DNA of 64,000 bases from a phage: the NCBI GenBank assembly GCA_014685065.1, contig GCA_014685065.1_4092.1; one strand, written 5' to 3'. This document shows, one piece after another, positions 16,504-63,915 of the stretch. The translations under genes were made by a program, and so were the position numbers. The notes beneath the pieces were generated by a model that saw nothing but the letters and a program-made list of their open reading frames with translations, did not search any database and was not told the origin of the DNA. Each line of letters opens with the position of its first letter. Position 1 is the first letter of the stretch.

Positions 16504-17619
16504 TTAAATATTATCTTGAATCGGTTGGATAGGAGCTTGCCATGAAAGAGTACAAATAATTTCCATTTTTCCATAAGGACTGTTGTTAACAGAATCGTTG
16601 AATACACATGAAATAATTTCATCAACATCGGATGCTGCATGATTAGTTTCATTAACAATAAAACGCATCTGACGATTGATATCAAAGTAGGAAGTTGGTG
16701 CAATTACAGTCCCACCAATATCTTCTTGTGCTTCACCACCAAAACGTACAAACATATCAGTTACAGGAAGAGAATAAGGTTGTATAACGTTTACATCAAT
16801 ATTAGAAACTACATATCCAGCAGGACACGTACCAATAACTAATAGTGCGTTAGTCCATGAGCTATCTATTGTATTTCTAATAGAAATTGTATCTTTACCT
16901 GGTGCACCTGGTTCGCCTTGTATACCTTGAATACCTTGCTGACCTTCTTTACCACGGAATAGAATACCATCACTCCACTCTTTTGAAGGAGGGGTAGTTG
17001 TAGTTACTTCATCAACATAATATAGTTTTCCATCAGTGTTGTTATAAAAACAATAATCAACTGGAAGATTTTCAATACTTGGAAATTGATCACCACTGCT
17101 ATCAATATGGAAACGACCACGCGGACCTTGTTCACCACGGAAAGGGATACCATCACTCCAAGTGGCAGTTACACTTTGATAGAAATAAAGCTTACCATCT
17201 TGAGTATTATAAAATGTATAGTTATTAAAAAGACCAGTTGTTGGGAAAGAAGTCCCAGCACTATCAATGTGGAACGGCTTACCCGCTTCACCAGTATCAC
17301 CTTTACCAAACTCAACACTAATCCATGTACTTGTCGGATCTTGTGCATCGTTTGATTTAAAGTATAGAGTACTGGTATTGTTAGCCAAGCTTAAGTAGCA
17401 CCACCCAAGTGGTTCACCAACTTTAAATTGTTCGGAAGGAATTTCAAAACCAATCTCATTAGGATAAAAGTTTTTACCATTCTCGCCATTCTGTCCTACA
17501 ACAAGACCTAAATCTTGAATTGTGTTATCTGCATAGGTTACAATTAAATGCCCAGCACCATTAATAACTAGACTTTTGATGCCGGAGTTATTACATGAAC
17601 CATTAAATGAAATTGTCAT
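16504..17619 (-). CDS. tail fibre-like protein with a short collagen-like Gly-X-Y tract
   Basis: GKEGQQGIQGIQGEPGAPGKD tract and repeated DGKLY(F/Y) modules; start set at the internal ATG (AAGGGA RBS), ORF-track start is 17655. Confidence 0.45.
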   Translation of the reverse strand: MTISFNGSCNNSGIKSLVINGAGHLIVTYADNTIQDLGLVVGQNGENGKNFYPNEIGFEIPSEQFKVGEPLGWCYLSLANNTSTLYFKSNDAQDPTSTWISVEFGKGDTGEAGKPFHIDSAGTSFPTTGLFNNYTFYNTQDGKLYFYQSVTATWSDGIPFRGEQGPRGRFHIDSSGDQFPSIENLPVDYCFYNNTDGKLYYVDEVTTTTPPSKEWSDGILFRGKEGQQGIQGIQGEPGAPGKDTISIRNTIDSSWTNALLVIGTCPAGYVVSNIDVNVIQPYSLPVTDMFVRFGGEAQEDIGGTVIAPTSYFDINRQMRFIVNETNHAASDVDEIISCVFNDSVNNSPYGKMEIICTLSWQAPIQPIQDNI

Positions 17620-35785: not shown

Positions 35786-38700
35786 TTAAGAACCGATATT
35801 AATATTACTTTTAGCTAGTGAGTTAACAATTTGAACATTTTCAACAGATGCAGTACTCAAGAATATTTGGTCTGAACGTGAAGGGATTTCAAATAGAGAA
35901 CCAAATTTCGAATTTGGATTTTGTGCAACTATAACAATAGTACTAATATGTCTACCTAACTGTGAGTGTATGTAAGTACACAAATCAGTATAATAGAAAC
36001 TTTCACCGAAATCCCAGTTATCAACATTGAAGTATTCATTAGTTAATGCTATGACATTTTGACGAATTTCATCATCACTCATTGTGCTGTTTGGTAATTT
36101 CACTACTTTAAAATCAGCTTTGTAATCTTCAGCAGCACTGTTTCCAAATAAAGGTAAGTACTCAGCACTATGCCAAATGATACTATCACTAATGACTATT
36201 TTTTGTTCAACATCTTTGAACATATCTTTTAATTCAACCGATGTTGGTGGTTTAGGAATACTACCAACAGCATTATTTTTCAACCAAACGTCAACTTCAG
36301 TTTTATATGAATTTGTTAATACATACATATCAATTAAGTTTGTTCTACTAGGATCAATGCGATTGTCGTCAGGTGCATAGTGTTTCCAATGGAAGTCTAT
36401 ACTAGTACGTGCATTAGTTTTAACAGTGTACTGTGAAGTAACATCTTTGTATCCATAATAATCTAGCTTCTGATTCTCGTCAGCATTAGTTCCCATGTTA
36501 TTAATTGCACGATAAAAAGCCAATTCAGGACTAACAGTGCCAGTATCATCGGAATAAGTTAAATTACTAATTAGTTGTCCCAAACGATCATTGTTATTGC
36601 CAACTGTTTGTTCAATAAAATAATATTTACCATCATAGTTAAAACCAACTAAAAATCCAGAACCTTTACTATATAATCCACTCAATGTGGTTGAACGAAT
36701 TGCGTTATTTCTAACAAATTCAGTTCTTTTATATGCATTCGGCTCTGCCAAAGCTTGTTCCATTGTATAAGACCACGATGAATCAAGAAGTGTGAAGGTA
36801 TCATTTGGTAAAGACAGTACTGATATAGTGAAATCACTATTTTCCTGAAATACCAAAATACCACCATATTTTAATGCATCGGTTCCAGTCCAAGTAGGAA
36901 CAATTTCTTTAAATTGGTTTGGTTCCAATGGTATACCATTACTATCTACTTTCCTAGATGTAACAATAACACGAGAACCATCTAGATAGCCATTCTCTTG
37001 TTGAATTGTGTCATAAATTTGAAAATCTATATTACTTGTCAATCCTGAATTACTACTACTAGTAGTGTTAGATGATAAAATTTCAATCTTATCACTTTGA
37101 ACTGTACCAGTACTTATATCAGTAATTTTTTTAGATGATACAAAGTAAAATCTTACTTTTTCTCCACCCACAAAAATATATTCAATACCGTTAGCATCAA
37201 ATTCCCAAGTTTCTGCTGTATATTTTACATTTATTATAATTAAAACTTCATTACCATTATACACAATAGTATCGTCATTAGTACTTGCTTCGATTGGAAC
37301 CCATGAAGTTGTTTCTTTATCATGTACAATTACAAAATCGGTTTTTTTATCCAACATAGCAGAAATAGACTGAACTTCAACTGTGTTAAATCTAGTTCTA
37401 TATGGTAATATGTACTCTATTGCTTGCATTCCACTAGGAACAGATGTGCTTAGTACATAAAAACCATTATCTAACACACTTACAACACTTGCCCATATCG
37501 TAGTACCAGAATTAGAAAATTTAATAAGAGTACCTACCTGATACGAACCATACACTGTTCCAGACGAACCCAAAATTCTGCCATATGTATTGGTTGTGTA
37601 ATTTGAATTGTACACTGGAGTCCATGCTTGTTGTATTTCAATACCAATTGTATTGGATGGATACGCTTGGTAACGTTGTATTACTGCATTTTCCCCAATC
37701 AATGGTTGAATATTGTCAATAACAATACTAGCATTTGTTTTTGTAGTTGGGAGCAATAACGATCTATTAAATTGCGTGTTTTCTTGATATAATGCACCAT
37801 CATCACTAAAAACGTCGGTATTCTGATACTTACCAGTAGGATCATTGATATCAATGAACCTTGATTGACCACTATAAATTCTATTAATAGCTTTAGATTT
37901 AAGTACTGTATTTCCTAAACTAAGTGGTGCTATATTATAATCTTCACCATTGACAAAACGGTTTTGGGTATAGTACATTTGTGGTGCACGTGCTTTAATC
38001 TGCTCAATAGTTTCAGCACTTTGTGCACGGTCGGATTCATATTGTAATGAAAAACGTATATCCAATGTACTAGATTCATAACTTGACTGTGTTTTTGTAC
38101 GATATGTATATTTTACGCTTTTGTTTTGAATTTCAGAAGTTTTAATGTTATATGTTTTACCATTACTAACACGATACCATACACGGAACGTCCCACGGGG
38201 AACAACACCACTTCTTGAGTCTGGGTACTTAATTGTTATTTGGTCTTTATCACGAGTAGTAACAGCAAAAATTGTTTTTAATTGACGATTAACAGTGTTA
38301 TATGCAATACTTTCCATTGATGGAACTTTTGTCCATTTGGTACGAACAATACCATCTTCATTTATTTCTTGAACCCATACATCAGTTTCGTTGATATTAT
38401 CAACGTTAATATCTTGTATACGGTTCTCTTCACGGATAGCATATTGATAATCTTGATATGTTAATGTACCTTGTACGAAATATACAAAAAACCCAGTATT
38501 TGGTGAGCTAAATCCATTACCATCATTTTGATAAACAATATATTTTTGCTCTTGTGGTTCTGGATGTCGTTCTTCAACACCAACAGACGTAATATCAGGA
38601 TTCACTACTTCAAATGTCATAGATTCACCATTGACAGTTGCAATAAATGGAATACTGGGTGCTGTCATTGGGATGGTGTTCATTCGATATAGTTGACGGG

Positions 38701-40248: not shown

Positions 40249-40284
40249 AAAGATATCCTCGTTTTATTTATAGTGCTAAAATAT

Positions 40285-46268: not shown

Positions 46269-46314
46269 CTTTTTGATTCTCCATAATAAGGGAACATTTG
46301 ATGTATTTATACGT

Positions 46315-46399: not shown

Positions 46400-47239
46400 A
46401 TGACAAATAGGCCAAAGCGTAAAAAGTATCTCAATAATGCTGATTTACTTCGTGAAATACAAAAAAGTAAGATTTCATACTGCTGGTTATTAGACAAATC
46501 ATATAGTATGTATGATTATATTGTTTTTCATGAGTCAGAAATTACTGCTGAGTTACTTGAAAAAGCCAAAGCAGCACGAATCAAACGACTAAACAATGAA
46601 ATGCTTGATAGTATTCGTGAAAAGGAAAGTATGAGTGCTAAAAAAGCTAAAGAATATGCAGATGAAAATAATTTAGTTATCACTGATGTTCCAATCGATG
46701 AAGTTGTTATTCGTGTTATCACTGATGAACATATTCCACCCGACACTAGAGTTAACTTTGAACCATTCAAGCATTACATTGTAGATAATGAAGGAATTCT
46801 CTATGAAGTATGTCGTTCTCATTGGAAAGGAGATCTTGAAACTGGTGAATTCAGTACTGTTCATGGTAAAATTACAAATGAACTAGGGAAGATGTTCATT
46901 AAACTTGCTGAGGAAATCTCTCATAAATCTAATTACAGAAACTATACATACTTAGATGAAATGATGGGTGATGCAAGAATACAATTAGTTAAAAACGCAC
47001 TTCTCTTTAAAGAGAGCATTCTTTATAAAAAAGATAAACCAGCAGTTCAGCTAAATCCTTTCTCTTACTATACATCATTCGTAAACAATAGTTTTCGTTC
47101 TATATTGAATAGTGAGAAAAATGTTCGAAATATACGTGATGATTTACTTGAAATGCATGGCTTTACGCCATCACATACACGTCAAATTGAGATTGAATTG
47201 AACATGATTGAAAGGAAAAATGAAGATGGCTCTGTTTGA
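46400..47239 (+). CDS. late-transcription sigma factor, gp55-like
   Basis: N-terminal KKYLNNADLLREIQ resembles T4 gp55 (recalled from memory) with further collinear segments; sits next to gp47/gp46 as in T4. Confidence 0.55.
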   Translation: MTNRPKRKKYLNNADLLREIQKSKISYCWLLDKSYSMYDYIVFHESEITAELLEKAKAARIKRLNNEMLDSIREKESMSAKKAKEYADENNLVITDVPIDEVVIRVITDEHIPPDTRVNFEPFKHYIVDNEGILYEVCRSHWKGDLETGEFSTVHGKITNELGKMFIKLAEEISHKSNYRNYTYLDEMMGDARIQLVKNALLFKESILYKKDKPAVQLNPFSYYTSFVNNSFRSILNSEKNVRNIRDDLLEMHGFTPSHTRQIEIELNMIERKNEDGSV

Positions 47240-50424: not shown

Positions 50425-50447
50425 GGGAGCCTTAGCTCCCTTTTTTT
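50425..50447. terminator. bidirectional intrinsic terminator
   Basis: GGGAGC-CTTA-GCTCCC hairpin followed by TTTTTTT; the stop codon of the minus-strand gene lies in the loop. Confidence 0.65.
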
Positions 50448-50923
50448 ATATCTACCATATTTAATTTACCGTCCTTAATTAGCTTTCTAGCTTGTTTAGT
50501 TCTTTCCTTGACGTTACCTCCAGGAACTACTCCTAAATCGCTTAGAATGGCGTTCTGCTGCGTTGCTGGAAGCCTTTTAAACTTAGCTACGTCAACGGTT
50601 AATGCCGTGTGGTGAATGACCTGCTCATCTTCTGGTATATGATTGTTCCTTTCAAGATAATCTGCCAGATTACGCAATACTTCATGTAATGGCTTATCAG
50701 TTAAATGACTTAGGCATCGTTTATATGAGTTTGCTACTCTCCCTTCCCATCCATTCACTTCGTTTTGAAGAACCTGCCTACAATGTTGATTTCCACCATG
50801 ATAATGGTCCAGTACTGGTTTTGTTATTTCTATACCAATTATAGGGTCAATCCCATTCTGCTTCTTTAATAGTTCATTTCGATAAGATGCTGCTTCTTTA
50901 GGATTTTTTAATCTCTTTTTCAT
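50432..50923 (-). CDS. hypothetical protein, possible HNH/EndoVII-like nuclease
   Basis: 163 aa with LDHYHGGNQHCRQVLQNEVNGWEG (DHxH...N...EG) loosely resembling beta-beta-alpha-Me nucleases; no zinc-binding Cys quartet, so weak. Confidence 0.3.
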   Translation of the reverse strand: MKKRLKNPKEAASYRNELLKKQNGIDPIIGIEITKPVLDHYHGGNQHCRQVLQNEVNGWEGRVANSYKRCLSHLTDKPLHEVLRNLADYLERNNHIPEDEQVIHHTALTVDVAKFKRLPATQQNAILSDLGVVPGGNVKERTKQARKLIKDGKLNMVDIKKGS

Positions 50924-50983
50924 AGCTGTTTGTCCTGTTTTGTTAAATAAAGTATATTAAAAAGTTTTGTGAGGTACAATAGA

Positions 50984-51931
50984 ATGGCTAAAATGACACA
51001 ACAACAATTTATAGATAAATCAATTAATCTACATGGTAGTATTTACACCTACAATAACACCGTGTATGTTAATGCACATCAACCAGTGTCTATTACATGT
51101 AAAATTCATGGTGACTTTACGGTAGTTCCTAATAAACATATTTCCGCAAAGCAAGGTTGTCCGGTTTGTTCTGATATTGCAAAGAAAGAACGTAAATCTA
51201 AAAAGTCACTGGAGTCATTCTTTACTGAAGCAAAAGAAGTACACGGTGATAAGTATGATTACTCTAAAGTGTTTTTCAACATTCGTTCAGAGAAAATTAC
51301 TATCATATGCAAAGAAGAAGGTCATGGTGAATTTAATCAGGTAGTTAGTAATCACCTAGCTGGACAGGGTTGCCCTGAATGCTCCAAAGCACTTATTGGT
51401 TTAAAGAAAAGAACACCAGAAGATGTATTCTTTGAAGATTGTAAGTACATTCATATGGATGCATACGACTACTCCAATACAAAATATAATGGTATGTATG
51501 AAACAATTACACCAGTATGCAAACGTCATGGAGAATTCACAGTACTGGCAACTAAACATTATCATAGAAAGCAAGGTTGTCCGGTTTGTTCTGACATGGA
51601 ACTAAAGTCAAGACCAGTTATTGAAATTCAGAATTTTTTAAAAGAGTATGATATAATATTTGAAATGGAAAAGAAGTTTGATGGTTGTAAAAATATAAAC
51701 CATTTACCATTTGATTTTTATATTCCTTCACTGAATCTTCTAATAGAGTATGATGGTATTCAACACTTCAAACCAATAGAGTACTTTGGTGGTAAACAAG
51801 CTTTAGCTGAACAGCAAAGAAATGATGAAATAAAAAATCAATTCTGTTTTAATAACAACATTACTCTTCTTAGAATAAAGTATTTCGAAGATCATATTAA
51901 AATCATCAAAGACTATATATCAAAACTTTAA
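50984..51931 (+). CDS. free-standing nuclease: three Cys/His repeat units plus C-terminal DUF559/Vsr-like PD-(D/E)XK domain (putative homing endonuclease)
   Basis: Three ~45-aa repeats (YxYS...C..HGxF......H....QGCPxCS) then LPFDFYIPSLNLLIEYDGIQHF...LLRIKYFE. ORF-track start is GTG 50969; ATG 50984 with GAGGT RBS preferred. Confidence 0.55.
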   Translation: MAKMTQQQFIDKSINLHGSIYTYNNTVYVNAHQPVSITCKIHGDFTVVPNKHISAKQGCPVCSDIAKKERKSKKSLESFFTEAKEVHGDKYDYSKVFFNIRSEKITIICKEEGHGEFNQVVSNHLAGQGCPECSKALIGLKKRTPEDVFFEDCKYIHMDAYDYSNTKYNGMYETITPVCKRHGEFTVLATKHYHRKQGCPVCSDMELKSRPVIEIQNFLKEYDIIFEMEKKFDGCKNINHLPFDFYIPSLNLLIEYDGIQHFKPIEYFGGKQALAEQQRNDEIKNQFCFNNNITLLRIKYFEDHIKIIKDYISKL

Positions 51932-52782: not shown

Positions 52783-52992
52783 TTAGTGCTTCTCGTTTTG
52801 TTTTTTAATTTTTTTATTAAAAGACTTAACTAATAAGTCTCTATCTATTAATGGCATATTAAGGAGTGTTCCATAGTCAATGTTATCCATATATACAGAA
52901 CATTCCATTAGTGCATTTTTGATTTCTGACTTATTCAGTTCTATCTCCTTCAGTACTTCTTGTATTTCTTCAGGAGATGACTGGAGAAGCAT
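52783..52992 (-). CDS. hypothetical small protein
   Basis: 69-aa ORF, start overlaps the stop of the upstream gene by 1 nt. Confidence 0.4.
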   Translation of the reverse strand: MLLQSSPEEIQEVLKEIELNKSEIKNALMECSVYMDNIDYGTLLNMPLIDRDLLVKSFNKKIKKQNEKH

Positions 52993-53828
52993 TACTCGAA
53001 AAAATGACTAGGATCATATTTTAGTCCATCAATTTCCCATTGATGATTACATCCATCACATTCTACTTCCATACTATGTGATACTCCAATTTCAAGTACT
53101 TCATCCATTTTTTCACGAATTAGTTTAAGTACTCCCTTCGATTGTTGTCCAAGCCATTCATTAATAAATTCTTTTTCAACTACTTCATCACCATCTGGTG
53201 TTATAATTTTTGCAATAACTCCACCGATCATGTCGAAGTTAAGTTGAGCCATGTTTTCAAATACTTCAGAAAATATTTTTACTTTTTCATCTTTATCAAT
53301 ATCAGCAGTTTCAAGAAACTTAGTCTTCTGTTGCTCACTGAACATGCGTTCAGCAAACGATGAATATTCTTTCCATGTCAGTGGTCTAAATTCTAAACGG
53401 AGTCCATTATCTAAATCAATTGATGGGATTTCTTCAAATGCTTGTGCAGTTTCAAGAAGATATGATAGATTACGCTCAAATCGACCTTCTTTTTCACATT
53501 CAGGACATACAACGTTAATATCATATGTTTCTTCTTTAGAAGCAACTTTAATAGCAATAAGAAGCATTTCAACGTCATTTACATACAACTCATCAGCGTC
53601 AATTACATTAGGAACACAGTTTTCAATAACACGGGATACTGCATCTCCGTTTAGTAACATATCGGGGGTATTAAGTGTCATTTCATCACGTGCACTACGT
53701 GCACAAACTCCACATTTGACACCTTTTGGACCTAGGACTCCTTCTTTATAAGGAATAACGCCGTTTGTAACTAACTTAGTACTGATCTCTTCAATTTTAG
53801 TGTACTTAGCAAGTGGATTCATAGCCAT
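52992..53828 (-). CDS. hypothetical Cys-rich protein (possible zinc-binding virion/assembly protein)
   Basis: 278 aa with CGVC, CPEC and CDGC pairs; preceded by GGAG RBS and a TATAAATA late-type motif. Confidence 0.45.
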   Translation of the reverse strand: MAMNPLAKYTKIEEISTKLVTNGVIPYKEGVLGPKGVKCGVCARSARDEMTLNTPDMLLNGDAVSRVIENCVPNVIDADELYVNDVEMLLIAIKVASKEETYDINVVCPECEKEGRFERNLSYLLETAQAFEEIPSIDLDNGLRLEFRPLTWKEYSSFAERMFSEQQKTKFLETADIDKDEKVKIFSEVFENMAQLNFDMIGGVIAKIITPDGDEVVEKEFINEWLGQQSKGVLKLIREKMDEVLEIGVSHSMEVECDGCNHQWEIDGLKYDPSHFFE

Positions 53829-53862: not shown

Positions 53863-53870
53863 TATTTATA
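53863..53870 (-). promoter_or_regulatory. T4-like late promoter motif TATAAATA (minus strand)
   Basis: Exact TATAAATA on the minus strand about 35 nt upstream of the 53828 start codon. Confidence 0.45.
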
Positions 53871-53958: not shown

Positions 53959-56163
53959 ATGGCTGGAAATACAAGTGATTACCTACTCCAGCAGTTGGTT
54001 AATCAAACTAAAGATAACAACGATAGTTTGAGTGCTATACGTGAGTTATTGGCTGAAAATATAAAAAATGATAGAAAGAAATCCGGTTCTAAAAGTGGAA
54101 AACGTAATGGAAGTAATTCATCAAGTACTGGAAACCGTGGCTCTCGAACAAATAACAAAGCTGATGATGGTAAAGAATTTGGAAAAATATTTAAATCATT
54201 ATCATCTGAAGTATCGAATGTCGGCAAAACTATGATGAGTACGTCTGCAAACGTTAGCAATGTTGTAAACTCACTAGGAATGAGTGCATCTTCATTTGCT
54301 GGTTCATTAGCAATGATCCCAGGTCCAGTTGGTGCAGCAGCATCTGCCTTCAAATTGGTTGCTGACGCTGGTTTAGCAGTTTATAATGTGTTAAATGCAC
54401 AGCTTGAAGTTTATAATAGAATAAACAGTGCTGGTGTCGCTCTATCTGAAGGTTACGGCTCCATATTAAAAGGTGCTGGTGCATCAATGATGAGTATTGA
54501 TGCATTTGGTGAAGCATTACAAACTCATAGTGCCGTTGTTGCACAATTAGATGGTGCATATGGTGATGGTGTTTCTACATTTGGTAAATTATTGGGTACT
54601 GTGCAACAAGCACAAAATCAATTAGGTTTATATGGTGTTTCTCAAAAAACATTAACTGATTTAACTGCACGTAATATTAAATTCCAAAAGCAATTTGGTG
54701 GAAGAGAAATGTTACGTAGTATGGATCAAGCAAAAAGTACTGAACAGTTTATCATGAGCATGACTAAGTTCAGTAAAAGCATGGGTGAGTCAGTTGATGC
54801 ACTATTAAATAAAACACAAAACTTAGATAAATCATTAGACACACGTTCAATGCAAATCGCATTACAAAACTATTCTGGATTATCTAGTAAAGCAGCAGTT
54901 GCAACATCAAAAGCATTTAACGAAGCGGCTGCCAGTATGGGTGATGCTGGTGCAGATTTTCTACGTTTAATTTCACATCGTTTAACTATTGGTGGAGTAC
55001 CAGATGATTTATTGACTCCAGTACTGAACCAATTTGCTGATTTAGGTGAGAACTTGGTACGTAGTGGTGTTACTGATTCACAAGAAATTCGCCGTCAACA
55101 ATTGGAATTTGTTAAAAAGAACAAAGAACTAATAAAGCAAGATTTATTAAATCAGATACAATTAGGAAACACTACGGCAGCAACCTTCAACCAACAACTA
55201 CTTGATATGGAAGCTGCGATTAATGATCCTAAGAGTCAACCAGCAGATAAACTAACACAATTCACTGATAGATTCAATAGATGGATTAGTAAAGAATTTA
55301 CTGAACCATTTAATAAAATGTATGCAGATACACAAAATTCTATTGCGGATTACCTTACTGATATTGCAGACCGTACTGATGGTGCATGGGAATTTATCGG
55401 AGAGTTAGCACTTGATGGTTTTGGTTTGGTTCCTATTGCGAAAGATGCAGTTGCGTATTTGGATAGGATTGGTGGTGAGTTTGAGCAGTGGTTAGAAGGG
55501 TTAGGTACTGAAATTTTTGGTAGTGGATATAATAAAGTTTCAGAAGCATTTGATAGCTTTATGAATAACCTAATGGATCTTCCTGGTAAACTTTGGGATT
55601 CTGTTAAAGGTTGGTTTGGTGGTTCAGACGACAAAGTAAAAGTAGAAAACAATTCTGTTACCGATGGTGCAGAAAAAGTTAATAATTATTTTGAAGAAAA
55701 AATGAATTCATTTGGTGATTATATTTCTAGTTCATTTGATGGTTTTTTAAAATGGAATTCAAGTAGAAACTTTAAACAACCAAAACCCCTTGATGAATCA
55801 GTTGCTGAAAAACTTATTAGTAGTGGTCTTGAAAATAAGCCAAGAGCTACTGCGAGAATTGAAAAATCTGAACATGTTGCACCATATGTAACGATAACTC
55901 CAAAAACATTTGACAAATCAGCATGGGGACCAAATGATCTACCAATTCAAGCTGAACCGGACGATTATGAGTCCATGAAAGCGATGATAAATAGTGGTAG
56001 TAGTATGGCAAATGCTAATAATAATGCCACAATATCAGAAGACATGAAAGAGTTACTTAAAAAACTTGCTGATGTTAATGAGCAATCTCTATCTGCTGTG
56101 CAACAGACAAATAACTATCTAAGAACTATCTCTGAAAACACTCAAGGTGAGAGAAACAGTTAA
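53959..56163 (+). CDS. hypothetical virion protein
   Basis: 734 aa; basic S/G/N-rich low-complexity N-terminus, hydrophobic Gly/Ala-rich segment; immediately upstream of the portal gene. Confidence 0.45.
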   Translation: MAGNTSDYLLQQLVNQTKDNNDSLSAIRELLAENIKNDRKKSGSKSGKRNGSNSSSTGNRGSRTNNKADDGKEFGKIFKSLSSEVSNVGKTMMSTSANVSNVVNSLGMSASSFAGSLAMIPGPVGAAASAFKLVADAGLAVYNVLNAQLEVYNRINSAGVALSEGYGSILKGAGASMMSIDAFGEALQTHSAVVAQLDGAYGDGVSTFGKLLGTVQQAQNQLGLYGVSQKTLTDLTARNIKFQKQFGGREMLRSMDQAKSTEQFIMSMTKFSKSMGESVDALLNKTQNLDKSLDTRSMQIALQNYSGLSSKAAVATSKAFNEAAASMGDAGADFLRLISHRLTIGGVPDDLLTPVLNQFADLGENLVRSGVTDSQEIRRQQLEFVKKNKELIKQDLLNQIQLGNTTAATFNQQLLDMEAAINDPKSQPADKLTQFTDRFNRWISKEFTEPFNKMYADTQNSIADYLTDIADRTDGAWEFIGELALDGFGLVPIAKDAVAYLDRIGGEFEQWLEGLGTEIFGSGYNKVSEAFDSFMNNLMDLPGKLWDSVKGWFGGSDDKVKVENNSVTDGAEKVNNYFEEKMNSFGDYISSSFDGFLKWNSSRNFKQPKPLDESVAEKLISSGLENKPRATARIEKSEHVAPYVTITPKTFDKSAWGPNDLPIQAEPDDYESMKAMINSGSSMANANNNATISEDMKELLKKLADVNEQSLSAVQQTNNYLRTISENTQGERNS

Positions 56164-56174
56164 GGACGAAAATA

Positions 56175-57914
56175 ATGAGTTGGAAACGACATATGACAGT
56201 GGGAAGGTCTAAACTATCGACCATCCCAAATCAGTCCAGTAATAGCAATAAATCAACAGGAACGAAAACAAATTTCGCTTCCTATCTTCCTGTTGTATAT
56301 AATGGATTGGCAAATCGTACTGAGCGTTATAGTCAGTATGAGCAAATGGACCAAGATCCTGAAATTAGAACTGCATTGAATATAATTGCTGACTTTTGTA
56401 CTCAAAGTACTGAAGATTTTGGTTTACCATATAAAATCAAATATAAAGATGATATTGGTGATACTGAAGTAACGACTATTGAAGATCGTTTAGATGCATG
56501 GACTGAACAAAATGATTTTAAAACACGAATGTATGAAATTGTGCGTGGTCTTCTGAAATATGGTGATCAATTTTTCATTCGAGATCCAGAAACATTCGAT
56601 TGGTATTGGGTAAGTCCCAAAAATGTTGAGCAAGTATTTGTTAACGAAGCCACTGGTAAAACACCAGTAATTTATTATATACGTGACGTATCATTAAATT
56701 TGAAAGATAAAGTTTTTAGTAACCTTCAAGTAGGATTTGATAAAACCGCTTATCCAGGAGCTATTCCAACAACAATGGGTGGTGGTGGTTCAGTAGCTGC
56801 TGGTGGTGCATCTGGTTTTACAAGTCAAGGAAATACGGCTGACCCATTCAGTACTAATGGACAATTAGACGTTATTCCTGTTGGTGCAGAACACGTAATT
56901 CATCTAACACTAAATACAGGACAAGATGGGGTATGGCCTTTTGGTACTAGTATACTTGAGGACGTATTTAAAGTCTATAAGCAAAAAGAACTTCTGGAAG
57001 ATAGTATCATAATTTATCGTGTACAACGTGCACCTGAGCGTCGTGTATTTAAAATTGATGTTGGTGATATGCAAGCACACCAAGCGATGGCTTATGTTGA
57101 AAGATTTAAAAATGAAATCCACCAGCGTAGAATACCTTCAAACAAAGGTGGAAGTACTTCACTAATGGATGCAGCGTATAATCCATTAAGCATTTTAGAA
57201 GACTACTTTTTCCCACAAACTTCTGAAGGTCGTGGTTCAGATGTTCAAACATTACCAGGCGGTGATAACTTAGGACAAATTGATGACTTACGTTATTTCA
57301 ATAATAAATTGATTCGTGGTCTTCAAATACCAGCTTCATATCTACCACAAGGTCCAGATGATGGTGGTGTTTCATTATTTGGTGATGGTGCTACACAAGC
57401 TATGGCAAGTGAATTGCGATTCAATAATCAATGTATGCGTTATCAACGTTTAGTTGCAAAACATTTTGATGCTGAATTCAAAAGATTTATGGTTAAAAAT
57501 GGATATAACATTAGTACTTCATCTTTTGAAGTTATTATGAATCCACCTATTAACTTAGCTTCTTATCGTAAAGCTGAACTAGATGCTAAACTAATTAATA
57601 CATATCTTCCTCTTAATGACTTGCCTTATATGGCGAAACAAACAATTCTTGAAAAAATGGGCTTTTCTAAAGCTGATATTGTTAAGAATGAACAAATGTG
57701 GTTACAAGAGAATCCACAAGATGGTTCCCAACCTTCTGGTGGTGAAGAAGATTCCGCAGGATTGCAGTCTGTTGGTATTGATGCTCCAAATGATCCTGGA
57801 ATGGATCTTGGTATTGATGGAGAAGGTAATTTGGAAAGTGCTGATGCCGAATACCAAGAGCAACAGAGTGGAAGTGGTGGTTTCGACCCTAATAATTTAG
57901 GCAATTCTTTTTAA
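56175..57914 (+). CDS. portal protein (T4 gp20-like)
   Basis: LEDSIIIYRVQRAPERRVFKIDVGDM...TLPGGDNLGQIDDLRYF collinear with the T4 gp20 core (recalled from memory). Confidence 0.8.
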   Translation: MSWKRHMTVGRSKLSTIPNQSSNSNKSTGTKTNFASYLPVVYNGLANRTERYSQYEQMDQDPEIRTALNIIADFCTQSTEDFGLPYKIKYKDDIGDTEVTTIEDRLDAWTEQNDFKTRMYEIVRGLLKYGDQFFIRDPETFDWYWVSPKNVEQVFVNEATGKTPVIYYIRDVSLNLKDKVFSNLQVGFDKTAYPGAIPTTMGGGGSVAAGGASGFTSQGNTADPFSTNGQLDVIPVGAEHVIHLTLNTGQDGVWPFGTSILEDVFKVYKQKELLEDSIIIYRVQRAPERRVFKIDVGDMQAHQAMAYVERFKNEIHQRRIPSNKGGSTSLMDAAYNPLSILEDYFFPQTSEGRGSDVQTLPGGDNLGQIDDLRYFNNKLIRGLQIPASYLPQGPDDGGVSLFGDGATQAMASELRFNNQCMRYQRLVAKHFDAEFKRFMVKNGYNISTSSFEVIMNPPINLASYRKAELDAKLINTYLPLNDLPYMAKQTILEKMGFSKADIVKNEQMWLQENPQDGSQPSGGEEDSAGLQSVGIDAPNDPGMDLGIDGEGNLESADAEYQEQQSGSGGFDPNNLGNSF

Positions 57915-57927
57915 ACATAAATAACAG

Positions 57928-57952
57928 TGTATAAGAATGAGGGTTTATTTTT
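57928..57952 (+). terminator. putative intrinsic terminator
   Basis: TGAGGGT-8 nt-ACCCTCA hairpin followed by TTTATAAT (short T-run). Confidence 0.4.
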
Positions 57953-57987
57953 ACCCTCATTTATAATGCATATTTCAAGGAGATCAA

Positions 57988-58215
57988 ATGTTAAAGGACA
58001 TCTTTGAATCTAGCAGTGATTCAATGTACGACCCTGAAGATGATCAGAACGTATATAAAATTACTGATTCCAGAAAACCGAAACTAACATTACAAGTATT
58101 AAACAACTTAAGAAAGTACCGTGAATTTAAAGCACATGAAGAACAACGCCGCAAAAATGTGGTTGCAGTTGTTTATGCCGCTGCACCAACAGGTGACGGT
58201 TCTGGGTTAATGTAA
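57988..58215 (+). CDS. hypothetical small protein (possibly prohead core component by position)
   Basis: 75-aa ORF with AGGAG RBS, between the portal and head-core genes. Confidence 0.4.
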   Translation: MLKDIFESSSDSMYDPEDDQNVYKITDSRKPKLTLQVLNNLRKYREFKAHEEQRRKNVVAVVYAAAPTGDGSGLM

Positions 58216-58267
58216 ATCGAAAATCGCACTTTTTAAAGCTTTTAAAAAAGGCGATTTTATTCAGTAC

Positions 58268-58283
58268 TAAATAATATCATACT
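58268..58283 (+). promoter_or_regulatory. late-type promoter/leader element, variant of TATAAATA
   Basis: 16-mer TAAATAATATCATACT identical to 61032-61047; also shared downstream ACGAAT and GGAGxATATAATG start context. Confidence 0.4.
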
Positions 58284-58316
58284 TTATACGAATGTAATAT
58301 ATCTATGGAGGATATA

Positions 58317-59165
58317 ATGGCGAATTTAAAACTACTACAAGAAGCAATTGCGGCGTTTGCAAATGGCGAACAAGATATTGCTGATAAAAAAATGCGTAAG
58401 TATTTCGTTGAGCAAGCTCAAGAAATTAACAAACAACTAGAAGAAAGCATGGAAGATGAAGACGACGATGAAGATTGTGAAGTCGAAGTTAAAGTCAAAG
58501 ATGAAGAAAAGCTTGACGAAGATTTTGATGTACAACCAGACGAAGGTCTAAATGCTGAAATCGAATACACCCTTGGTGAAGAAGATGAAAGTGCAGAAGA
58601 AGAAGTTGAATTCTCTGCTGATGCAGATGGTGACGGTGAAGACGATGTTGACGTTGAAGTGAAAGCTGATGCTGATGTTCCTTCCGAAGACCAATGGGAA
58701 TCAATCCAAGATGCTTTCCGTGGCCTACAACAAATGTTTGATGAAATCGGTGACGGTGAAGTTGATCTAGATTCTGAAGAAGAAGTAGAAGATAGCGAAG
58801 AAGAAGTTGGTGTTGACGGTGACGACGAATTTGCTGATGTTGAATTCGGCGATGAAAAATTCGGTGAATCCTTCAAACTAGAAAAAGTTGCTCCAGTTGA
58901 TAAGAAAGAAAAAGCTGGCACTCATTCCAAATCTCCAGTAGCACCAGAAGCTAAATCTCCAGTAGCAGGAGCAGAGCCAGTTAAATTCGCTAAGAAAACT
59001 GACCAAGCACCACTACTAGACCTAGATGATAAATCTGTTCTACCAAAAGATAGCCTAGATCTTGGTAAAAATGCTCGCGGTGAAATGAAAGATGTTAAAG
59101 CACCAAAAACTACTGCATCTAATTCTAAATCACCACTAAGCAAAGCACAACCTAAACTAAAATAA
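58317..59165 (+). CDS. highly acidic protein, probable prohead core/scaffolding-type protein
   Basis: Long D/E-rich tracts (EDEDDDEDCEVEVKVKDEE, DGDGEDDVDVEVKADADV); position between portal and prohead protease. ORF-track start 58305; ATG 58317 with GGAGG RBS preferred. Confidence 0.45.
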   Translation: MANLKLLQEAIAAFANGEQDIADKKMRKYFVEQAQEINKQLEESMEDEDDDEDCEVEVKVKDEEKLDEDFDVQPDEGLNAEIEYTLGEEDESAEEEVEFSADADGDGEDDVDVEVKADADVPSEDQWESIQDAFRGLQQMFDEIGDGEVDLDSEEEVEDSEEEVGVDGDDEFADVEFGDEKFGESFKLEKVAPVDKKEKAGTHSKSPVAPEAKSPVAGAEPVKFAKKTDQAPLLDLDDKSVLPKDSLDLGKNARGEMKDVKAPKTTASNSKSPLSKAQPKLK

Positions 59166-59185
59166 ATATCTGAAAGGAGATCATT

Positions 59186-59809
59186 ATGAGTAGTATGATT
59201 CGTGAATGGTCTTCATTCAATGATTCTAAAGTTGTTTTGGAACATCGTGATAATGGATTTGGTGGGCGTGACTGCTATCTTCGTGGTATTGCTATTCAAG
59301 CCGACCAACGAAATTTGAACGAGAGAATTTACCCTTTATCTGAAATTACAAGGGCAGTAAATAACATGAACCAGCGTTTAGCTAAAGGTGAAAGCATTCT
59401 TGTTGAATGTGACCATCCAGAAACACTAACTATTAACCTAGACCGTGTAGCAGCAATGATTACTAAGGTTTGGATGGAAGGTGCTAATGGTATGGCAGAA
59501 ATCAAACTACTTGATACTGCACATGGTCAGAATATCCGTAAAATGCTAGAGGCTGGTGTAAAACTTGGTGTAAGTTCTCGCGGTTCCGGTAACGTTGATT
59601 ATAATGGAATAGTTTCTGATTTTGAAATTATCACTATTGATATTGTTGCTCAACCTAGTGCTCCAGAAGCATACCCAACAGCGGTATTTGAATCTCTGAT
59701 GAGTAAGTACGGATCACCTTGTAATAGTTCTAAAAAAATCACTGAATCTAAAAAAGTAAATAATTTAGATTCTGAAATATACGATTTTTTCAAGAAATTA
59801 AAAGGTTAA
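59186..59809 (+). CDS. prohead core protease (T4 gp21-like)
   Basis: Collinear with gp21-family pattern N.RIYP...CDHPE...AMITKVWMEG...GVKLGVSSRGSG...DFE...D.V.QPS.PEAY (T4 gp21 recalled from memory). Confidence 0.6.
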   Translation: MSSMIREWSSFNDSKVVLEHRDNGFGGRDCYLRGIAIQADQRNLNERIYPLSEITRAVNNMNQRLAKGESILVECDHPETLTINLDRVAAMITKVWMEGANGMAEIKLLDTAHGQNIRKMLEAGVKLGVSSRGSGNVDYNGIVSDFEIITIDIVAQPSAPEAYPTAVFESLMSKYGSPCNSSKKITESKKVNNLDSEIYDFFKKLKG

Positions 59810-59820
59810 CATTTTAAAAA

Positions 59821-59828
59821 TATAAATA
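59821..59828 (+). promoter_or_regulatory. T4-like late promoter motif TATAAATA
   Basis: Exact TATAAATA 48 nt upstream of the scaffold start; overlaps an 8-bp hairpin (59826-59849). Confidence 0.45.
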
Positions 59829-59875
59829 TCTGTATGTTGAAGTACAGATATTTCAGTACTTAAAGGAGAGAACGA

Positions 59876-60991
59876 ATGTCTAAATTAGAAAAGCTTCTAA
59901 AAGAATCATCTCTTTCTGATGAGGCAAAACAGCTAATTCAGGAAGCATGGAATGAAGAAAAGAATACACTAGCCGCAGAGATGCGTGAAGAAATGAAAGG
60001 CCGTTATCAGCAAGATTTGGCTGAACTAACCGAAGGTTTGAACACTATGGTTACTCAAGTCATTGCTGAAGAAATGGGTGCTGTATATGAAGAGAAAAAA
60101 CGTCTCGTTGAAGATCGTGTAACTCTACGTAAAACACTAAGCAATTTCTCTGCGTTTTCAAACTCTGTTTTGGCTGAAGAAGTTAAACAAATGCGTAAAG
60201 AACGTAAGCATCTTCATGAATGCATGGGTAAATTCGTTAATTTTTCTAACGGTATCCTAGCAGAAGAGCTAAAAGAATTCCACACTGAAAAACGCCAACT
60301 AGTAGAAACTCGCGTTAAACTACTTGCTGAAGGTTCACGTCAAATTGCTGAAGCTCGTAATAACTTCATCAAACGTACATCTGAAAGTGCTGCTAAATAT
60401 ATTGCAGAAACCACTCAGAAGAATCTATATGCGTTGAAACAAGATCTAGTGGAAGCAAAACAAAATATGTTTGGTCGTAAAATCTTTGAAGCATTTGCTC
60501 AAGAGTTTAATGTCAAACAATTTAATGAAAACTCATTGCTACGTTCCCTAACTGAATCAATTAAATCTAAAGAAGATGAAATTGCTCAAGTTAAGCAAGA
60601 ACTACATGAAACTGCTAATGCCGTTAAAGCTGCTAAAACCAAACTACGTATTATGGAAGATGCACAAGCACGTAATGCGATTATGTCTGAACTAGTAAAA
60701 CCACTAACTGCACAGCAAAAACAAATTATGGAATCCCTTCTAGCTACTTCACCTACTGAAAAGCTTAAAGAAGATTTCAGCAAGTACCATAAGTCAGTAC
60801 TTAACGGTACTAAAGTAAATGAATCTGCTACCACTCGTCAAGCAGTTCAGTCTTCCGCTAAGAAAACTCTTGCAGAAGGTAAAGTAATCACTGGCAACCG
60901 TCAGGCTATTGTTGAAAGCGAAGAAATGACCGCTGACGATATGGCATTCCTAAAAGAACTAGATGTTCTTTCAGGTATCAATAAAAAATAA
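59876..60991 (+). CDS. prohead scaffolding protein (gp22-like)
   Basis: 371 aa, A/E/K/Q-rich with heptad-like periodicity (predicted coiled coil); position between protease and capsid genes. Confidence 0.55.
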   Translation: MSKLEKLLKESSLSDEAKQLIQEAWNEEKNTLAAEMREEMKGRYQQDLAELTEGLNTMVTQVIAEEMGAVYEEKKRLVEDRVTLRKTLSNFSAFSNSVLAEEVKQMRKERKHLHECMGKFVNFSNGILAEELKEFHTEKRQLVETRVKLLAEGSRQIAEARNNFIKRTSESAAKYIAETTQKNLYALKQDLVEAKQNMFGRKIFEAFAQEFNVKQFNENSLLRSLTESIKSKEDEIAQVKQELHETANAVKAAKTKLRIMEDAQARNAIMSELVKPLTAQQKQIMESLLATSPTEKLKEDFSKYHKSVLNGTKVNESATTRQAVQSSAKKTLAEGKVITGNRQAIVESEEMTADDMAFLKELDVLSGINKK

Positions 60992-61029
60992 ACATTTTAA
61001 AGCATTTTAATAATCAAATTTTTCAGTTC

Positions 61030-61037
61030 TATAAATA
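61030..61037 (+). promoter_or_regulatory. T4-like late promoter motif TATAAATA
   Basis: Exact TATAAATA 46 nt upstream of the capsid start; extended block TAAATAATATCATACT shared with 58268-58283. Confidence 0.5.
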
Positions 61038-61082
61038 ATATCATACTGAAAAACGAATATAACATCTTTAAGGAGATATATA

Positions 61083-62258
61083 ATGTCACAACTACTAAAT
61101 GAATCCAAATGGGTAGCAGTAAAAGAGAAACTAGTTGAAGGTCTACAGGGTACTCGTAAGTCTGTAATGGAAACTGTTCTTGATAACCATCGTAAAGTTA
61201 TGCTAACTGAATCCGCAACTTCTGGTGCAACTACCGCTGGTAACATCGCTACTCTAAACAAAGTGATTCTACCAATTATGCGTCGTGTAATGCCAACCGT
61301 TATTGCTAACGAAATCATCGGTGTTCAACCTATGACTGGTCCAGTTGGTCAGATCCACACCCTACGTGTACAATATGCTGATAACGCACCTGGTGTAATC
61401 GCTGGTGAAGAAATGCTTTCTCCATACAAAATCGCTAAATCTTACTCTGGTGATCTAAATGCGGATAATAGCAACCCACAAGCTGCTCCTACTAGCCAAC
61501 TAGAAGGTACTATGGGTCGTCGCGTTAACATCCGTATTCTACGTGAAACTGTTGAAGCGAAATCTCGTCGTCTATCTGCACGTTGGACTGTTGAATCTGC
61601 ACAAGATGCTCAATCCCAACATGGTGTTGACGTTGAAGCAGAACTAATGGCTGCAATCGCTCAAGAAGTTACTGTAGAAATCGACCAAGAGCTACTAAGC
61701 CGTCTACGTGCACTACCTGGTGCTGCTGCTGTAACTTATGACCAATCTAAAGTTACTGGTGTTGCAACCTTCGTTGGTGATGAGCACGCTGCTCTAGCTA
61801 CTCTAATTAACCGTCAAGCAAACGAAGTTGCTCGTCGTACTAAGCGTGGTGCTGCAAACTGGGCTGTTGTTTCCCCAACTGCACTAACCATTCTACAATC
61901 TGCTACTACTTCTAGCTTTGCACGTACCACTGAAGGTACTTTTGAAGCACCAACTAACGTTAAGTTTGTAGGTACTCTAAACAGCACTATGCGTATTTTC
62001 GTTGATACCTATGCTAGTGATGCAGAAGATATTCTAATTGGTTATAAAGGAAATGCGGAAACTGATGCTGGTGTATTCTATTGCCCATACATCCCACTAA
62101 TGGCTTCCGGTACTGTAATGGACCCTAACACTGGGGAACTCGTTACAACTTTCTTAACCAGATACGGGTATGTTCAGTTGACCGATAGCACCAGTTCACT
62201 AGGTAACGCTGCGGACTACTACAGCAAAATCGCTATCAAAAACGTTACTTTCATGTAA
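61083..62258 (+). CDS. major capsid protein (gp23-like position)
   Basis: 391 aa directly after the scaffold gene; strongly biased codon usage suggests high expression; strong terminator follows. Confidence 0.6.
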   Translation: MSQLLNESKWVAVKEKLVEGLQGTRKSVMETVLDNHRKVMLTESATSGATTAGNIATLNKVILPIMRRVMPTVIANEIIGVQPMTGPVGQIHTLRVQYADNAPGVIAGEEMLSPYKIAKSYSGDLNADNSNPQAAPTSQLEGTMGRRVNIRILRETVEAKSRRLSARWTVESAQDAQSQHGVDVEAELMAAIAQEVTVEIDQELLSRLRALPGAAAVTYDQSKVTGVATFVGDEHAALATLINRQANEVARRTKRGAANWAVVSPTALTILQSATTSSFARTTEGTFEAPTNVKFVGTLNSTMRIFVDTYASDAEDILIGYKGNAETDAGVFYCPYIPLMASGTVMDPNTGELVTTFLTRYGYVQLTDSTSSLGNAADYYSKIAIKNVTFM

Positions 62259-62302
62259 TTGTAATAGATTTAAAAGATTTAATCAAAAAAAATAAAAACA
62301 AA

Positions 62303-62333
62303 AGGGACTCTTCGGAGTCCCTTTTCTTTTTAT
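62303..62333 (+). terminator. intrinsic terminator
   Basis: AGGGACTC-TTCG-GAGTCCCT hairpin followed by TTTCTTTTTATT. Confidence 0.75.
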
Positions 62334-62404
62334 TAAAAAACCCTTTACACAATGTTCTGGAATGTATATAATACGCACATACACGAAAATAAAGAGACAA
62401 AATT

Positions 62405-63502
62405 ATGCCAAACGTAAGTATCAACAAAGAAGAGTTTATCAGCAAAATGACTGCTAAGTATGGTGAATTTGATTTCAGTACTTTAGTATTCAAAGCAAGT
62501 AAAACAACTGTGAAATGTAACAAGTGTGGAAAAGAAAACATAAAATCTGCACTTCGTCACATTGCATGTACATGTGCATCATGTTATTCAAACATGTCGC
62601 AACGTTCAAACAACGACACATTCATCAGCACGGTAGAAAATAAATTTGGTAAAGATAAATTCAAATTTGATAAACTAAATTACACTAACGCTATAACAAA
62701 AGTAACACTCTTTTGCACTGATGAAGAGCACAACGATTACTTTGAAATAACACCAAACAAATTTCTTTCTGGTAAGGGATGTCCTGTGTGTAATAAAAAT
62801 GAAGCATACAGTACTGAATCATTCACTGCAAAAGTAAAAGAAAACTATGGTGATGCATTGGATTTGACAAATACTGTTTATGTCAATCAGAAAACTAAAG
62901 TAACGGTTCATTGCACAAAAGGACATCACGACTGGACAGTAGATCCAAAAACTTTAATCGTCGGTAAAACTGGCTGTGGTACATGCTCTGGTAAAGGTGG
63001 ACGAAGTACTGAGCGTTTCATTGAACTAGTATCACCAATTCATAACCATAAGTATGATTATAGCTTGGTGGATTATACAACAAGTGAGAAGTATGTGGAT
63101 ATTGTGTGTCCGACGCATGGTGTTTTTTCCCAACAACCAAAAGCACATATGGCGGGTAAAGGATGTCCATCATGTGGTGAATATGGATATCAACCATCAA
63201 AACCTGGATATTTCTATGTTCAAAAACTAACTAACAATGACAAGACGGTGTACAAATATGGAATCACTGGTGATATGAAACGCCGTGTAAACGAACAAAG
63301 TCGTAATTCTGGGTTCGAACATGAAGTACTAGTAGAACGCTACTTTGAAGATGGAAATCAACCATTACTGTTGGAAAAGTTCATAAAGAAATACATTGAA
63401 AGTGGAGTAGTAAGTACTGAAGAGTTGCCGTCAGGATTTACTGAAACGTTTGATGAAAAGTATCTAAAATCTGTACTGGAAATTGTAAATAACTTTAAGT
63501 AA
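62405..63502 (+). CDS. free-standing nuclease: four Cys/His repeat units plus C-terminal GIY-YIG-like domain (putative homing endonuclease)
   Basis: Four repeats ending in GKGCPxC-type motifs, then GYFYVQKL...YKYGITGDMKRRVNEQ (GIY...YIG...R...E) at 63216-63275. Confidence 0.55.
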   Translation: MPNVSINKEEFISKMTAKYGEFDFSTLVFKASKTTVKCNKCGKENIKSALRHIACTCASCYSNMSQRSNNDTFISTVENKFGKDKFKFDKLNYTNAITKVTLFCTDEEHNDYFEITPNKFLSGKGCPVCNKNEAYSTESFTAKVKENYGDALDLTNTVYVNQKTKVTVHCTKGHHDWTVDPKTLIVGKTGCGTCSGKGGRSTERFIELVSPIHNHKYDYSLVDYTTSEKYVDIVCPTHGVFSQQPKAHMAGKGCPSCGEYGYQPSKPGYFYVQKLTNNDKTVYKYGITGDMKRRVNEQSRNSGFEHEVLVERYFEDGNQPLLLEKFIKKYIESGVVSTEELPSGFTETFDEKYLKSVLEIVNNFK

Positions 63503-63525
63503 ACAATCTAAAGGAGTTGACACGG

Positions 63526-63876
63526 ATGTTAACTGTATACAAATTTAATAGAGAAGAGTACTTAAAGAGTCAGTACTCAAACATAGAAATAAATGTTCCT
63601 TATGGGACATTAGTTGGTTATGATGAATCCACCGAAACTTTATATTATAATGATGATAGATTGGATTATAGTTTAGATTCTTTTATAGAAGATATACTAA
63701 ACACACATACTGAAGATATGTTATATGAAGAATACATAGATCATTATAGGGAACGTATGTCACAATTACACTCGGACGCTCCAGTACTAAACATTACACA
63801 AGAACCTTCTGAATTTCAGCCCCATAATCCTTTTCAACGTTTAATAGATATTGGTTTGAAATTCACTATTAGTTGA
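63526..63876 (+). CDS. hypothetical protein
   Basis: ORF-track start is TTG 63517; ATG 63526 with AAGGAG RBS preferred; 116 aa. Confidence 0.45.
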   Translation: MLTVYKFNREEYLKSQYSNIEINVPYGTLVGYDESTETLYYNDDRLDYSLDSFIEDILNTHTEDMLYEEYIDHYRERMSQLHSDAPVLNITQEPSEFQPHNPFQRLIDIGLKFTIS

Positions 63877-63915
63877 TAGATAAATATCTCCATATTAATG
63901 ATGGAGATTGAATCT

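Follow-up and report, generated by a model that had tools for sequence, protein, structure and literature searches.

A shared late promoter–leader cassette before the acidic head protein and major capsid genes of a 121Q-like jumbo phage

The late promoters of phage T4 consist of an 8-bp box, TATAAATA, which is located at −13 to −6 relative to the transcription start (PMC1524935). The open bubble extends from −12 to +2 (PMC7892883). A review of T4 late transcription describes nothing as conserved beyond the box save AT-richness, and it notes that the strengths of late promoters in vivo, consensus compared with variant, had not been determined (PMC2988020). Promoters of this type have been predicted before in the phage group considered here: for phage CBB, the late motif ATAAATA was reported upstream of structural genes along with a gp55-like factor, and the motif was stated for GAP32 too (PMC5259590). 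T4 late transcription depends on gp55, the co-activator gp33 and the sliding clamp gp45, of which the last two link it to replication. No gp33 or gp45 homologs were reported for CBB (PMC5259590). In this study, a 64,000-nucleotide stretch of phage DNA (one strand of contig GCA_014685065.1_4092.1, assembly GCA_014685065.1; referred to as the window) was analyzed with respect to two late-promoter blocks that share an identical 16-mer, TAAATAATATCATACT, and that stand before the gene for an acidic virion head protein (g600) and the gene for the major capsid protein. A first-pass annotation of the window had proposed that this similarity reflects extra recognition determinants or a shared element of the 5′ untranslated region (UTR).

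Judged by sequence identity, the window is a very close relative of Escherichia phage 121Q, an Asteriusvirus and RaK2-like jumbo myovirus of 348.5 kb: positions 56000–63900 are 99.7% identical to 121Q, which is also the closest match of positions 36000–58000 (98.9% over 95% of the query). The gene order at the locus is portal, small gene 599, g600, prohead protease, scaffold, major capsid and endonuclease. The gene g600 (58317–59165, plus strand) encodes a homolog of 121Q gp600 and phAPEC6 gp228c and matches phrog_15696 (head and packaging); its true start is at 58317, as in the 121Q annotation, and not at the in-frame ATG further upstream at 58305. The major capsid protein gene, which is T4 gp23-like, occupies 61083–62258 on the plus strand.

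Both copies of the 16-mer were recovered exactly, at 58268–58283 and 61032–61047 on the plus strand, and the window contains no third copy at up to two mismatches. The first copy overlaps the g600 late box ACTAAATA (58266–58273, plus strand), a C-type variant that matches the T4 box at six of eight positions, and the second overlaps the capsid-gene late box (61030–61037, plus strand), which is an exact TATAAATA. Other elements listed at first pass were likewise present, namely exact TATAAATA motifs at 61030–61037, 59821–59828 and, on the minus strand, 53863–53870, and a downstream ACGAAT at 58288–58293 and 61053–61058. The start context described as common to the two genes was found as GGAGGATATAATG (58307–58319) and GGAGATATATAATG (61072–61085), but the length of the variable spacer within it differs between the copies (1 nt versus 2 nt). 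A 16-mer shared by different intergenic segments arose in only 10 of 1000 Markov simulations. When the 100-nt regions upstream of genes in the window were aligned locally, the g600/capsid pair scored 46 and ranked first of 861 pairs (next 28, median 11, 95th percentile 16). The similarity covers about 90 nt, which is wider than first described, and includes TTTTAAAGC..TTTTAA and TTCAGT upstream. The paired promoter–leader cassettes are real and statistically solid.

The T4 geometry puts the 16-mer at −11 to +5, so that the block comprises the box and the start site and is not mainly 5′ UTR. Both boxes would then occupy −13 to −6, and transcription is predicted to start at the A residues at 58279 and 61043, given this geometry and the A-rich sixth position after the box. 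This position, which corresponds to T4 +1, is A in 25 of the 38 (A/C)TAAATA boxes of 121Q and C in none; together with a weak pyrimidine preference at positions 4–5, it is the only general feature beyond the box. The sequence upstream of the box is unconserved among the late boxes and contains no −35 element, while ATATC follows the box in both copies. The suggestion of a shared 5′ UTR element was half right: the first five transcribed bases and the ribosome-binding region are shared, but the 16-mer itself is promoter and start site.

The predicted 5′ UTR of g600 (58279–58319, plus strand) contains ATCT (58302–58305), the Shine–Dalgarno (SD) sequence GGAGG (58307–58311) and the start ATG at 58317, and that of the capsid gene (61043–61085, plus strand), which is A-rich and unstructured, contains ATCTTT (61064–61069), the SD sequence AAGGAG (61070–61075) and the ATG at 61083. 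The pattern ATCT-N1-6-GGAG-N0-2-ATATAATG occurs genome-wide only at the g600 and capsid genes. A structured 5′ UTR element was rejected for the capsid leader, which has a minimum free energy of −1.8 kcal/mol (z +0.47) and shows no consensus pairs across nine genomes. A possible hairpin over the g600 SD sequence (UAUAUCU/GGAUAUA) was no better than in shuffled sequence (z about 0); its bases are invariant among the compared sequences. Masking of the SD sequence by a larger read-through structure was also rejected: in the fold of the 121Q sequence, some bases of the SD sequence are paired with UUUUAAA, but RNAalifold found no conserved structure among 11 genomes. The covariance models of Rfam 15 gave no match in 57000–62200 at E values up to 1, with sub-threshold hits only on the terminator at about 62300, and a known RNA family in the leaders was thereby dismissed.

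The leader of T7 gene 10, or pET ribosome-binding site, is TTTAAGAAGGAGATATACATATG and likewise precedes a major capsid gene. The capsid leader of the window, CTTTAAGGAGATATATAATG, has nearly the same design, a strong SD sequence followed by an AU-rich spacer. T7 is an unrelated phage with an unrelated promoter system, and the likeness most plausibly reflects convergent evolution of an efficient start of translation.

Genome-wide counts were made on the 121Q record NC_025447, which carries a 2-kb gap at 324501–326561. The 16-mer occurs twice in this genome, and the 14-mer TAAATAATATCATA occurs exactly three times in 348.5 kb, before g600, before the capsid gene and before the virion-protein gene 618, the last of which lies outside the window. 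When promoters were compared with the box as anchor, the g600/capsid pair ranked first of 351 and the capsid/g618 pair second. Two more genes, that of the tail sheath and gene 580, are preceded by a looser form, TAAATAA-NNN-YATAC. Since only three of about 38 late boxes of 121Q carry the extended block, a general extended late consensus was ruled out, and the proposal that late promoters as a whole have additional recognition determinants is unsupported. This distribution differs from that in T4, where conservation is described as ending with the box; here, a small subset of promoters shares the exact −12 to +3/+5 sequence. A TATACGAAT/ACGAATATA likeness to the tail sheath leader was set aside, as it stands at a different distance from the box.

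The wider class to which both promoters belong is well marked in these genomes. Of 54 copies of ATAAATA in 121Q, 29 are intergenic and lie at most 150 nt upstream of a same-strand start, with an intergenic share of 9.3% of the genome, and the early-gene region at 50–200 kb contains almost none. The (A/C)TAAATA boxes concentrate in short intergenic regions and point toward structural genes. In the window, the motif is intergenic and near a gene start for 12 of 16 copies of ATAAATA and four of eight copies of CTAAATA, as against one of 19 for TTAAATA and one of nine for GTAAATA. The enrichment of CTAAATA before genes makes the g600 box a legitimate variant, and CTAAATA is the late consensus of Aeromonas phage Aeh1 (PMC1524935). 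The late box consensus here is (A/C)TAAATA with a free first position, compared with TATAAATA in T4. Exact TATAAATA is rarer in the window than expected by chance (five copies versus 10.9 expected), and all five copies are correctly oriented 16–47 nt upstream of a gene start. Two further copies lie on the minus strand at 40265–40272 and 46304–46311, and that at 53863–53870 (minus strand) is an ordinary late box with no extension, 34 nt upstream of the baseplate hub gene (52992–53828, minus strand).

The presumed trans-factor for all of these boxes is a gp55-type late sigma factor encoded in the window (46400–47239, plus strand), which was recognized by profile matches (phrog_12791, E 2.7e-154; phrog_234, late sigma transcription factor, E 8.4e-18 over residues 125–262) and the 121Q ortholog of which is annotated as 'sigma factor for late transcription'. 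The protein has 279 amino acids, about 95 more than T4 gp55. As the T4 gp55-family profile covers only residues 125–262, about 120 N-terminal residues have no counterpart in the profile. An annotated gp44-like clamp loader is also carried by 121Q. A promoter scan gave no plus-strand sigma-70-type match at either block, and a sigma-70 reading of the blocks was rejected. The T4-like late promoter reading made at first pass is supported by the gp55-type sigma factor, the placement of the boxes before structural genes and the A-rich position 6. The arrangement agrees with T4 in the box, its placement relative to the gene, the AT-rich segment between box and start, the lack of a −35 element, the association with structural genes and the use of a phage sigma factor of the gp55 type.

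The orthologous head-gene regions of 11 genomes (Ecwhy_1, EJP2, Munch, Hallingskeid, Kaldavass, CBB, GAP32, XbC2, XaC1, RaK2 and PA5oct) were compared, together with a further set of 80 IMG/VR loci. In the lineages down to XaC1, which are most of those sampled, both promoters read ATAAATAA-NNN-CATAC and both leaders finish in (C/T)ATCTTT..(A)GGAG(G)..AT(A)TA(T)AATG. The cores from −12 to +5 of the g600 and capsid promoters are identical at 16 of 17 positions in 121Q, Ecwhy_1, EJP2, Munch and Hallingskeid, at 15 in XaC1 and at 13 in Mimasvirus-type phages. The majority fraction of the g600 leader, 0.79, exceeds that of the codon positions of the gene itself (0.67, 0.67 and 0.56). The distal promoter of gene 618 keeps ATAAATAA-NNN-CA(T/C)A in four genera. 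Most of the related lineages that were sampled retain one common core and start context in both copies, so that the blocks are not a mere local duplication. The block is nevertheless largely missing before other late genes, an outcome that had been named at first pass as refuting the proposal made there. ACGAAT was rejected as a conserved element, as it is not retained beyond the 121Q clade. That the wider family generally has a dedicated capsid promoter was likewise rejected: in PA5oct, and in almost every IMG/VR relative in which the capsid protein is at most 72% identical, the gap before the capsid gene is 15–30 nt long and contains no box. One locus among the distant relatives, L030, is an exception and retains a CTAAATA box.

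The anatomy of these sequences, their distribution across the genome, their conservation across genera and the presence of the sigma factor were observed directly, and on balance they incline us to read the block as the core of a high-output late promoter, start-site and ribosome-site cassette for very abundant head proteins. In such a cassette, the late promoter would be of the gp55 type and include a particular start-site sequence, ATAAATA-ATATC-A(+1)TAC, and it would be followed by an unstructured A-rich leader that ends in a strong SD sequence and an AU-rich spacer (ATCTTT..(A)GGAG(G)..ATATAATG). The cassette would be deployed for a few mass-produced head proteins, the capsid protein and the acidic head protein g600, while the gp618/617 pair would use its promoter part only, and the near-identity of the copies would reflect an old shared design maintained by selection. 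In the virion proteome of phAPEC6, sequence coverage was 74.9% for the capsid protein, 68.0% for the tail sheath, 69.8% for gp210 and 69.9% for gp211, with the capsid protein, gp210 and gp211 among the highest of the table; the same study describes a capsid decoration protein, present in equimolar amounts to the capsid protein, that could not be assigned (PMC7247149). From gene order, size and strand, phAPEC6 gp210 and gp211 were equated with 121Q gp618 and gp617, which are paralogs in a 'head and packaging' family.

Several observations weigh against the high-output cassette. The g600 homolog of phAPEC6 reached just 16.7% coverage (PMC7247149), and gp253, which has 65.6% coverage and was equated with the window gene at 16504–17619, has an ordinary box; the correlation with abundance is therefore suggestive but not clean, and mass-spectrometry coverage is in any case a poor proxy for copy number. 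The tail sheath gene, the product of which is very abundant, has just the looser ATAAATAA-NNN-TATAC, and the loose class A-NNN-YATA is modestly enriched (four observed versus 1.15 expected, P = 0.019). Conservation of the capsid leader (0.75) is no higher than that of the third codon positions of the capsid gene (0.78), and RaK2 deviates in both promoters. The strength of the promoter and of translation, the link to abundance and the start position are, moreover, inferred.

The resemblance could instead be a historical accident, in which a duplication or gene conversion made one region a copy of the other and the extension beyond the 7–8-bp box has no function of its own. Consistent with this, there are only two to three copies genome-wide, the three spacer bases match between the copies in the 121Q clade only, and in this clade the similarity reaches upstream of the box: in Ecwhy_1, AAATTTTTCAGT stands ahead of each of the two boxes, and the upstream paralog score is 18 compared with 6–11 in other genera. 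However, a neutral copy would be expected to decay over such a distance, whereas ATAAATAA-NNN-CATAC and the start context are retained in both copies where the third codon positions of g600 stand at 0.56, and a third promoter, distal to gene 618, follows the same pattern across genera. Recent gene conversion is poorly supported as the whole story, as the core is equally alike in genera that have no upstream similarity; in the 121Q clade, some extra conversion or homogenisation upstream of the box may have taken place, for which the similarity there is weak evidence. An accident of this kind is unlikely. The two other alternatives draw in part on a perfect 9-bp inverted repeat that brackets the capsid box and leaves it in the loop, with the 5′ arm TTTTTCAGT at 61019–61027 (plus strand, predicted −24 to −16) and the 3′ arm ACTGAAAAA at 61045–61053 (plus strand, predicted +3 to +11). 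The repeat, which is new here, accounts for the capsid-specific conservation of ACTGAAAA and TTTTTCAGT.

At the RNA level, the shared bases might act as a 5′-terminal signal (5′-AUACU...) for a regulator or RNase, or the capsid repeat might form a read-through hairpin for processing or pausing. Such an element would explain the conservation specific to the capsid promoter, and each of the 12 distinct sequences of the capsid promoter has the repeat, the pairs of which vary by lineage (CAGT/ACTG in Asteriusvirus-like, CTGT/ACAG in Mimasvirus-like and TTGT/ACAA in XaC1-lineage phages). In a hand-anchored alignment, 90.1% of the cells pair, which none of 500 shuffles reached and which compares with 42–69% in slid registers; two pairs are altered on both sides and G·U wobbles lie on the sense strand. 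However, this alignment was fitted to the structure (the spacer was removed and L020 was padded by one base) and represents about two independent events, RNAalifold found nothing in the unanchored capsid alignment, and there was no Rfam match. In 121Q alone, the repeat is the second-best bracketing repeat among 27 late boxes (P about 0.03), and the g600 promoter has no such repeat, its best bracketing stem being 4 bp. A similar layout is seen at the scaffold promoter, and in T4 the late promoters of e (lysozyme), soc, 49 and I-TevI lie in hairpins that block the translation of early read-through transcripts (PMC3014915). As in T4 e and soc, the loop encloses the capsid box and the predicted start comes after the 5′ arm, so that late transcripts would lack the hairpin, which could form only in read-through RNA or in DNA. 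Unlike in T4, the 3′ arm (+3 to +11) is clear of the SD sequence (+28 to +33) and the AUG and would mask neither; the T4 translational mechanism is thus not applicable, and an RNA-level role seems improbable overall. The mirror-image changes in the arms would also fit a palindromic operator, in which case the extended core, the repeat or both would be bound by a phage protein, for example a dimeric regulator or the N-terminal extension of about 120 residues by which the 279-residue sigma factor exceeds the match to the gp55 family; the bound protein could distinguish these promoters from ordinary late ones. The arms TTCAGT/ACTGAA resemble split halves of the most over-represented palindrome of the genome, (C)AGTACT(G). 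However, no candidate binding protein was identified, the half-sites have an unusual spacing of 26 bp from centre to centre, the extension is missing from most late boxes despite the same sigma factor, and the wobble positions mildly favour RNA. A protein site in the DNA is accordingly rated as very unlikely.

A bolder proposal, decidedly unlikely as it stands, is that RaK2/121Q-type jumbo phages have a second tier of late promoters, ATAAATAA-N3-CATAC (+1 at A), which is bracketed by a conserved palindrome at the capsid gene and would be read differently, for example by the extra N-terminal domain of the sigma factor or by a dedicated DNA- or RNA-binding factor, setting a very high and matched output of the capsid shell. 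With regard to the high-output cassette itself, a natural and conserved 'special' late promoter offers candidate strength determinants, namely A at −5, the AT-rich spacer, C−1/A+1, the first transcribed bases and the start resembling that of T7 gene 10. The cassette could serve as a strong late expression tool; it would still be a variant of a known promoter type.

Three described systems bear further comparison. The published list of CBB promoters (Buttimer et al., 2017, PMC5259590) contains, in the rows considered here, 14-mers with (A/C)TAAATA upstream of structural genes; that of the scaffold gene is among them, as is the proximal promoter of the g618 ortholog. Neither the capsid gene (orf257) nor the ortholog of g600 (orf254) appears in those rows, and the late-promoter rows among them mention no extended block, start-site motif or bracketing repeat. 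The PeSL (promoter-early stem-loop) cassettes of T4-type phages, in which a terminator stem-loop and a promoter are combined (Arbiol, Comeau and Krisch; PMC2839356, PMC4122927), are, as here, a repeated intergenic module and a possible point of recombination, and the likeness is limited to the g600 copy, in which a stem-loop is followed by a promoter. PeSLs, however, have early sigma-70 promoters and are numerous, standing beside the variable genes of hyperplastic regions, whereas the 121Q-type blocks are of the late type, have no sigma-70-like promoter, occur in two to three copies and stand before core head genes. T4 P23 reads TATAAATA-CTCCTG-ATACTGAAG and has ATACTGAA in common with the 121Q-type capsid promoter (61043–61050) at almost the same offset; deep homology was rejected and coincidence is the probable explanation, as T4 P23 lies within the coding sequence of gene 22 (GAT ACT GAA).

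Other hairpins were found near late boxes. The scaffold-gene late box TATAAATA (59821–59828) overlaps an 11-bp inverted repeat, AAATATCTGTA (59824–59834) and TACAGATATTT (59843–59853), the whole element spanning 59821–59853 on the plus strand. The repeat starts inside the box and is retained in other genera; its version in Munch has two U·G wobbles, which points to a hairpin in the RNA, and formation of this hairpin would be limited to read-through transcripts. Folding also indicated an AT-rich hairpin, AAAATCGC...GCGATTTT, with a T-run after gene 599 (58220–58261, plus strand), just upstream of the g600 late promoter. Its outer stems differ by genus yet remain complementary (AATCGC/GCGATT, CCGT/ACGG, TACCAT/ATGGTA and ATGGCAT/ATGCCAT), and its counterpart in phage Munch is annotated as a terminator; it is probably a conserved terminator, which a simple terminator scan missed owing to its AT-rich stem.

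Gene 618 has two late boxes (121Q record 348365–348490, minus strand) that are kept in all genera examined. The proximal box is followed, near the predicted 5′ end, by a stem-loop, GCAGG..CCTGC, for which RaK2 has the compensatory GTAAG..CTTAC, and which may be an mRNA-stabilising 5′ hairpin. At about 35017–35077 of the 121Q record, a 15-bp hairpin, AAAAACTCCAAGATT/AATCTTGGAGTTTTT, has ATAAATA in its loop (about 35042), and its 3′ arm includes the GGAG of the next gene, gene 49. The layout is the classic one of the T4 lysozyme type, in which the ribosome site is exposed only in late transcripts. Downstream of the capsid gene of the window, a strong bidirectional intrinsic terminator (62300–62325) is followed by a near-consensus sigma-70 promoter, TTTACA-17-TATAAT (62344–62372), before the endonuclease gene at 62405, which looks like an early-type promoter within the late head module.

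The hexamer AGTACT is the commonest in the 121Q genome, with 900 sites compared with 118 expected from composition (348.5 kb), and CAGTACTG accounts for 196 sites in the same genome. The window holds about 133 AGTACT sites, for example at 753, 39271, 39282, 58263 and 59855. With protein sequences held fixed, the hexamer is enriched three- to fourfold in all three codon phases, which indicates selection at the DNA level. CBB, GAP32, RaK2, Munch and XaC1 share the enrichment, whereas PA5oct, Phosso, T4 and one distant IMG/VR relative lack it. No mention of it was found in papers on these phages, and it is new here. The hexamer may be a target of DNA modification, a site of binding or a signal for nicking. 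The site at 58263–58268 overlaps the g600 box (AGTAC-TAAATA), and this overlap may explain the C in that box.

The window and the 121Q record are not collinear, and the record has extra HNH endonuclease genes. The two differ in homing-endonuclease content, at window positions of about 1100 and at 50432–51931, and the annotation and coordinate offsets suggest that the window lacks genes 564 and 584 of the 121Q record. The window itself carries an endonuclease VII-like gene (50432–50923, minus strand) and an HNH gene (50984–51931) with an internal 81-nt repeat (51097–51177 and 51517–51597).

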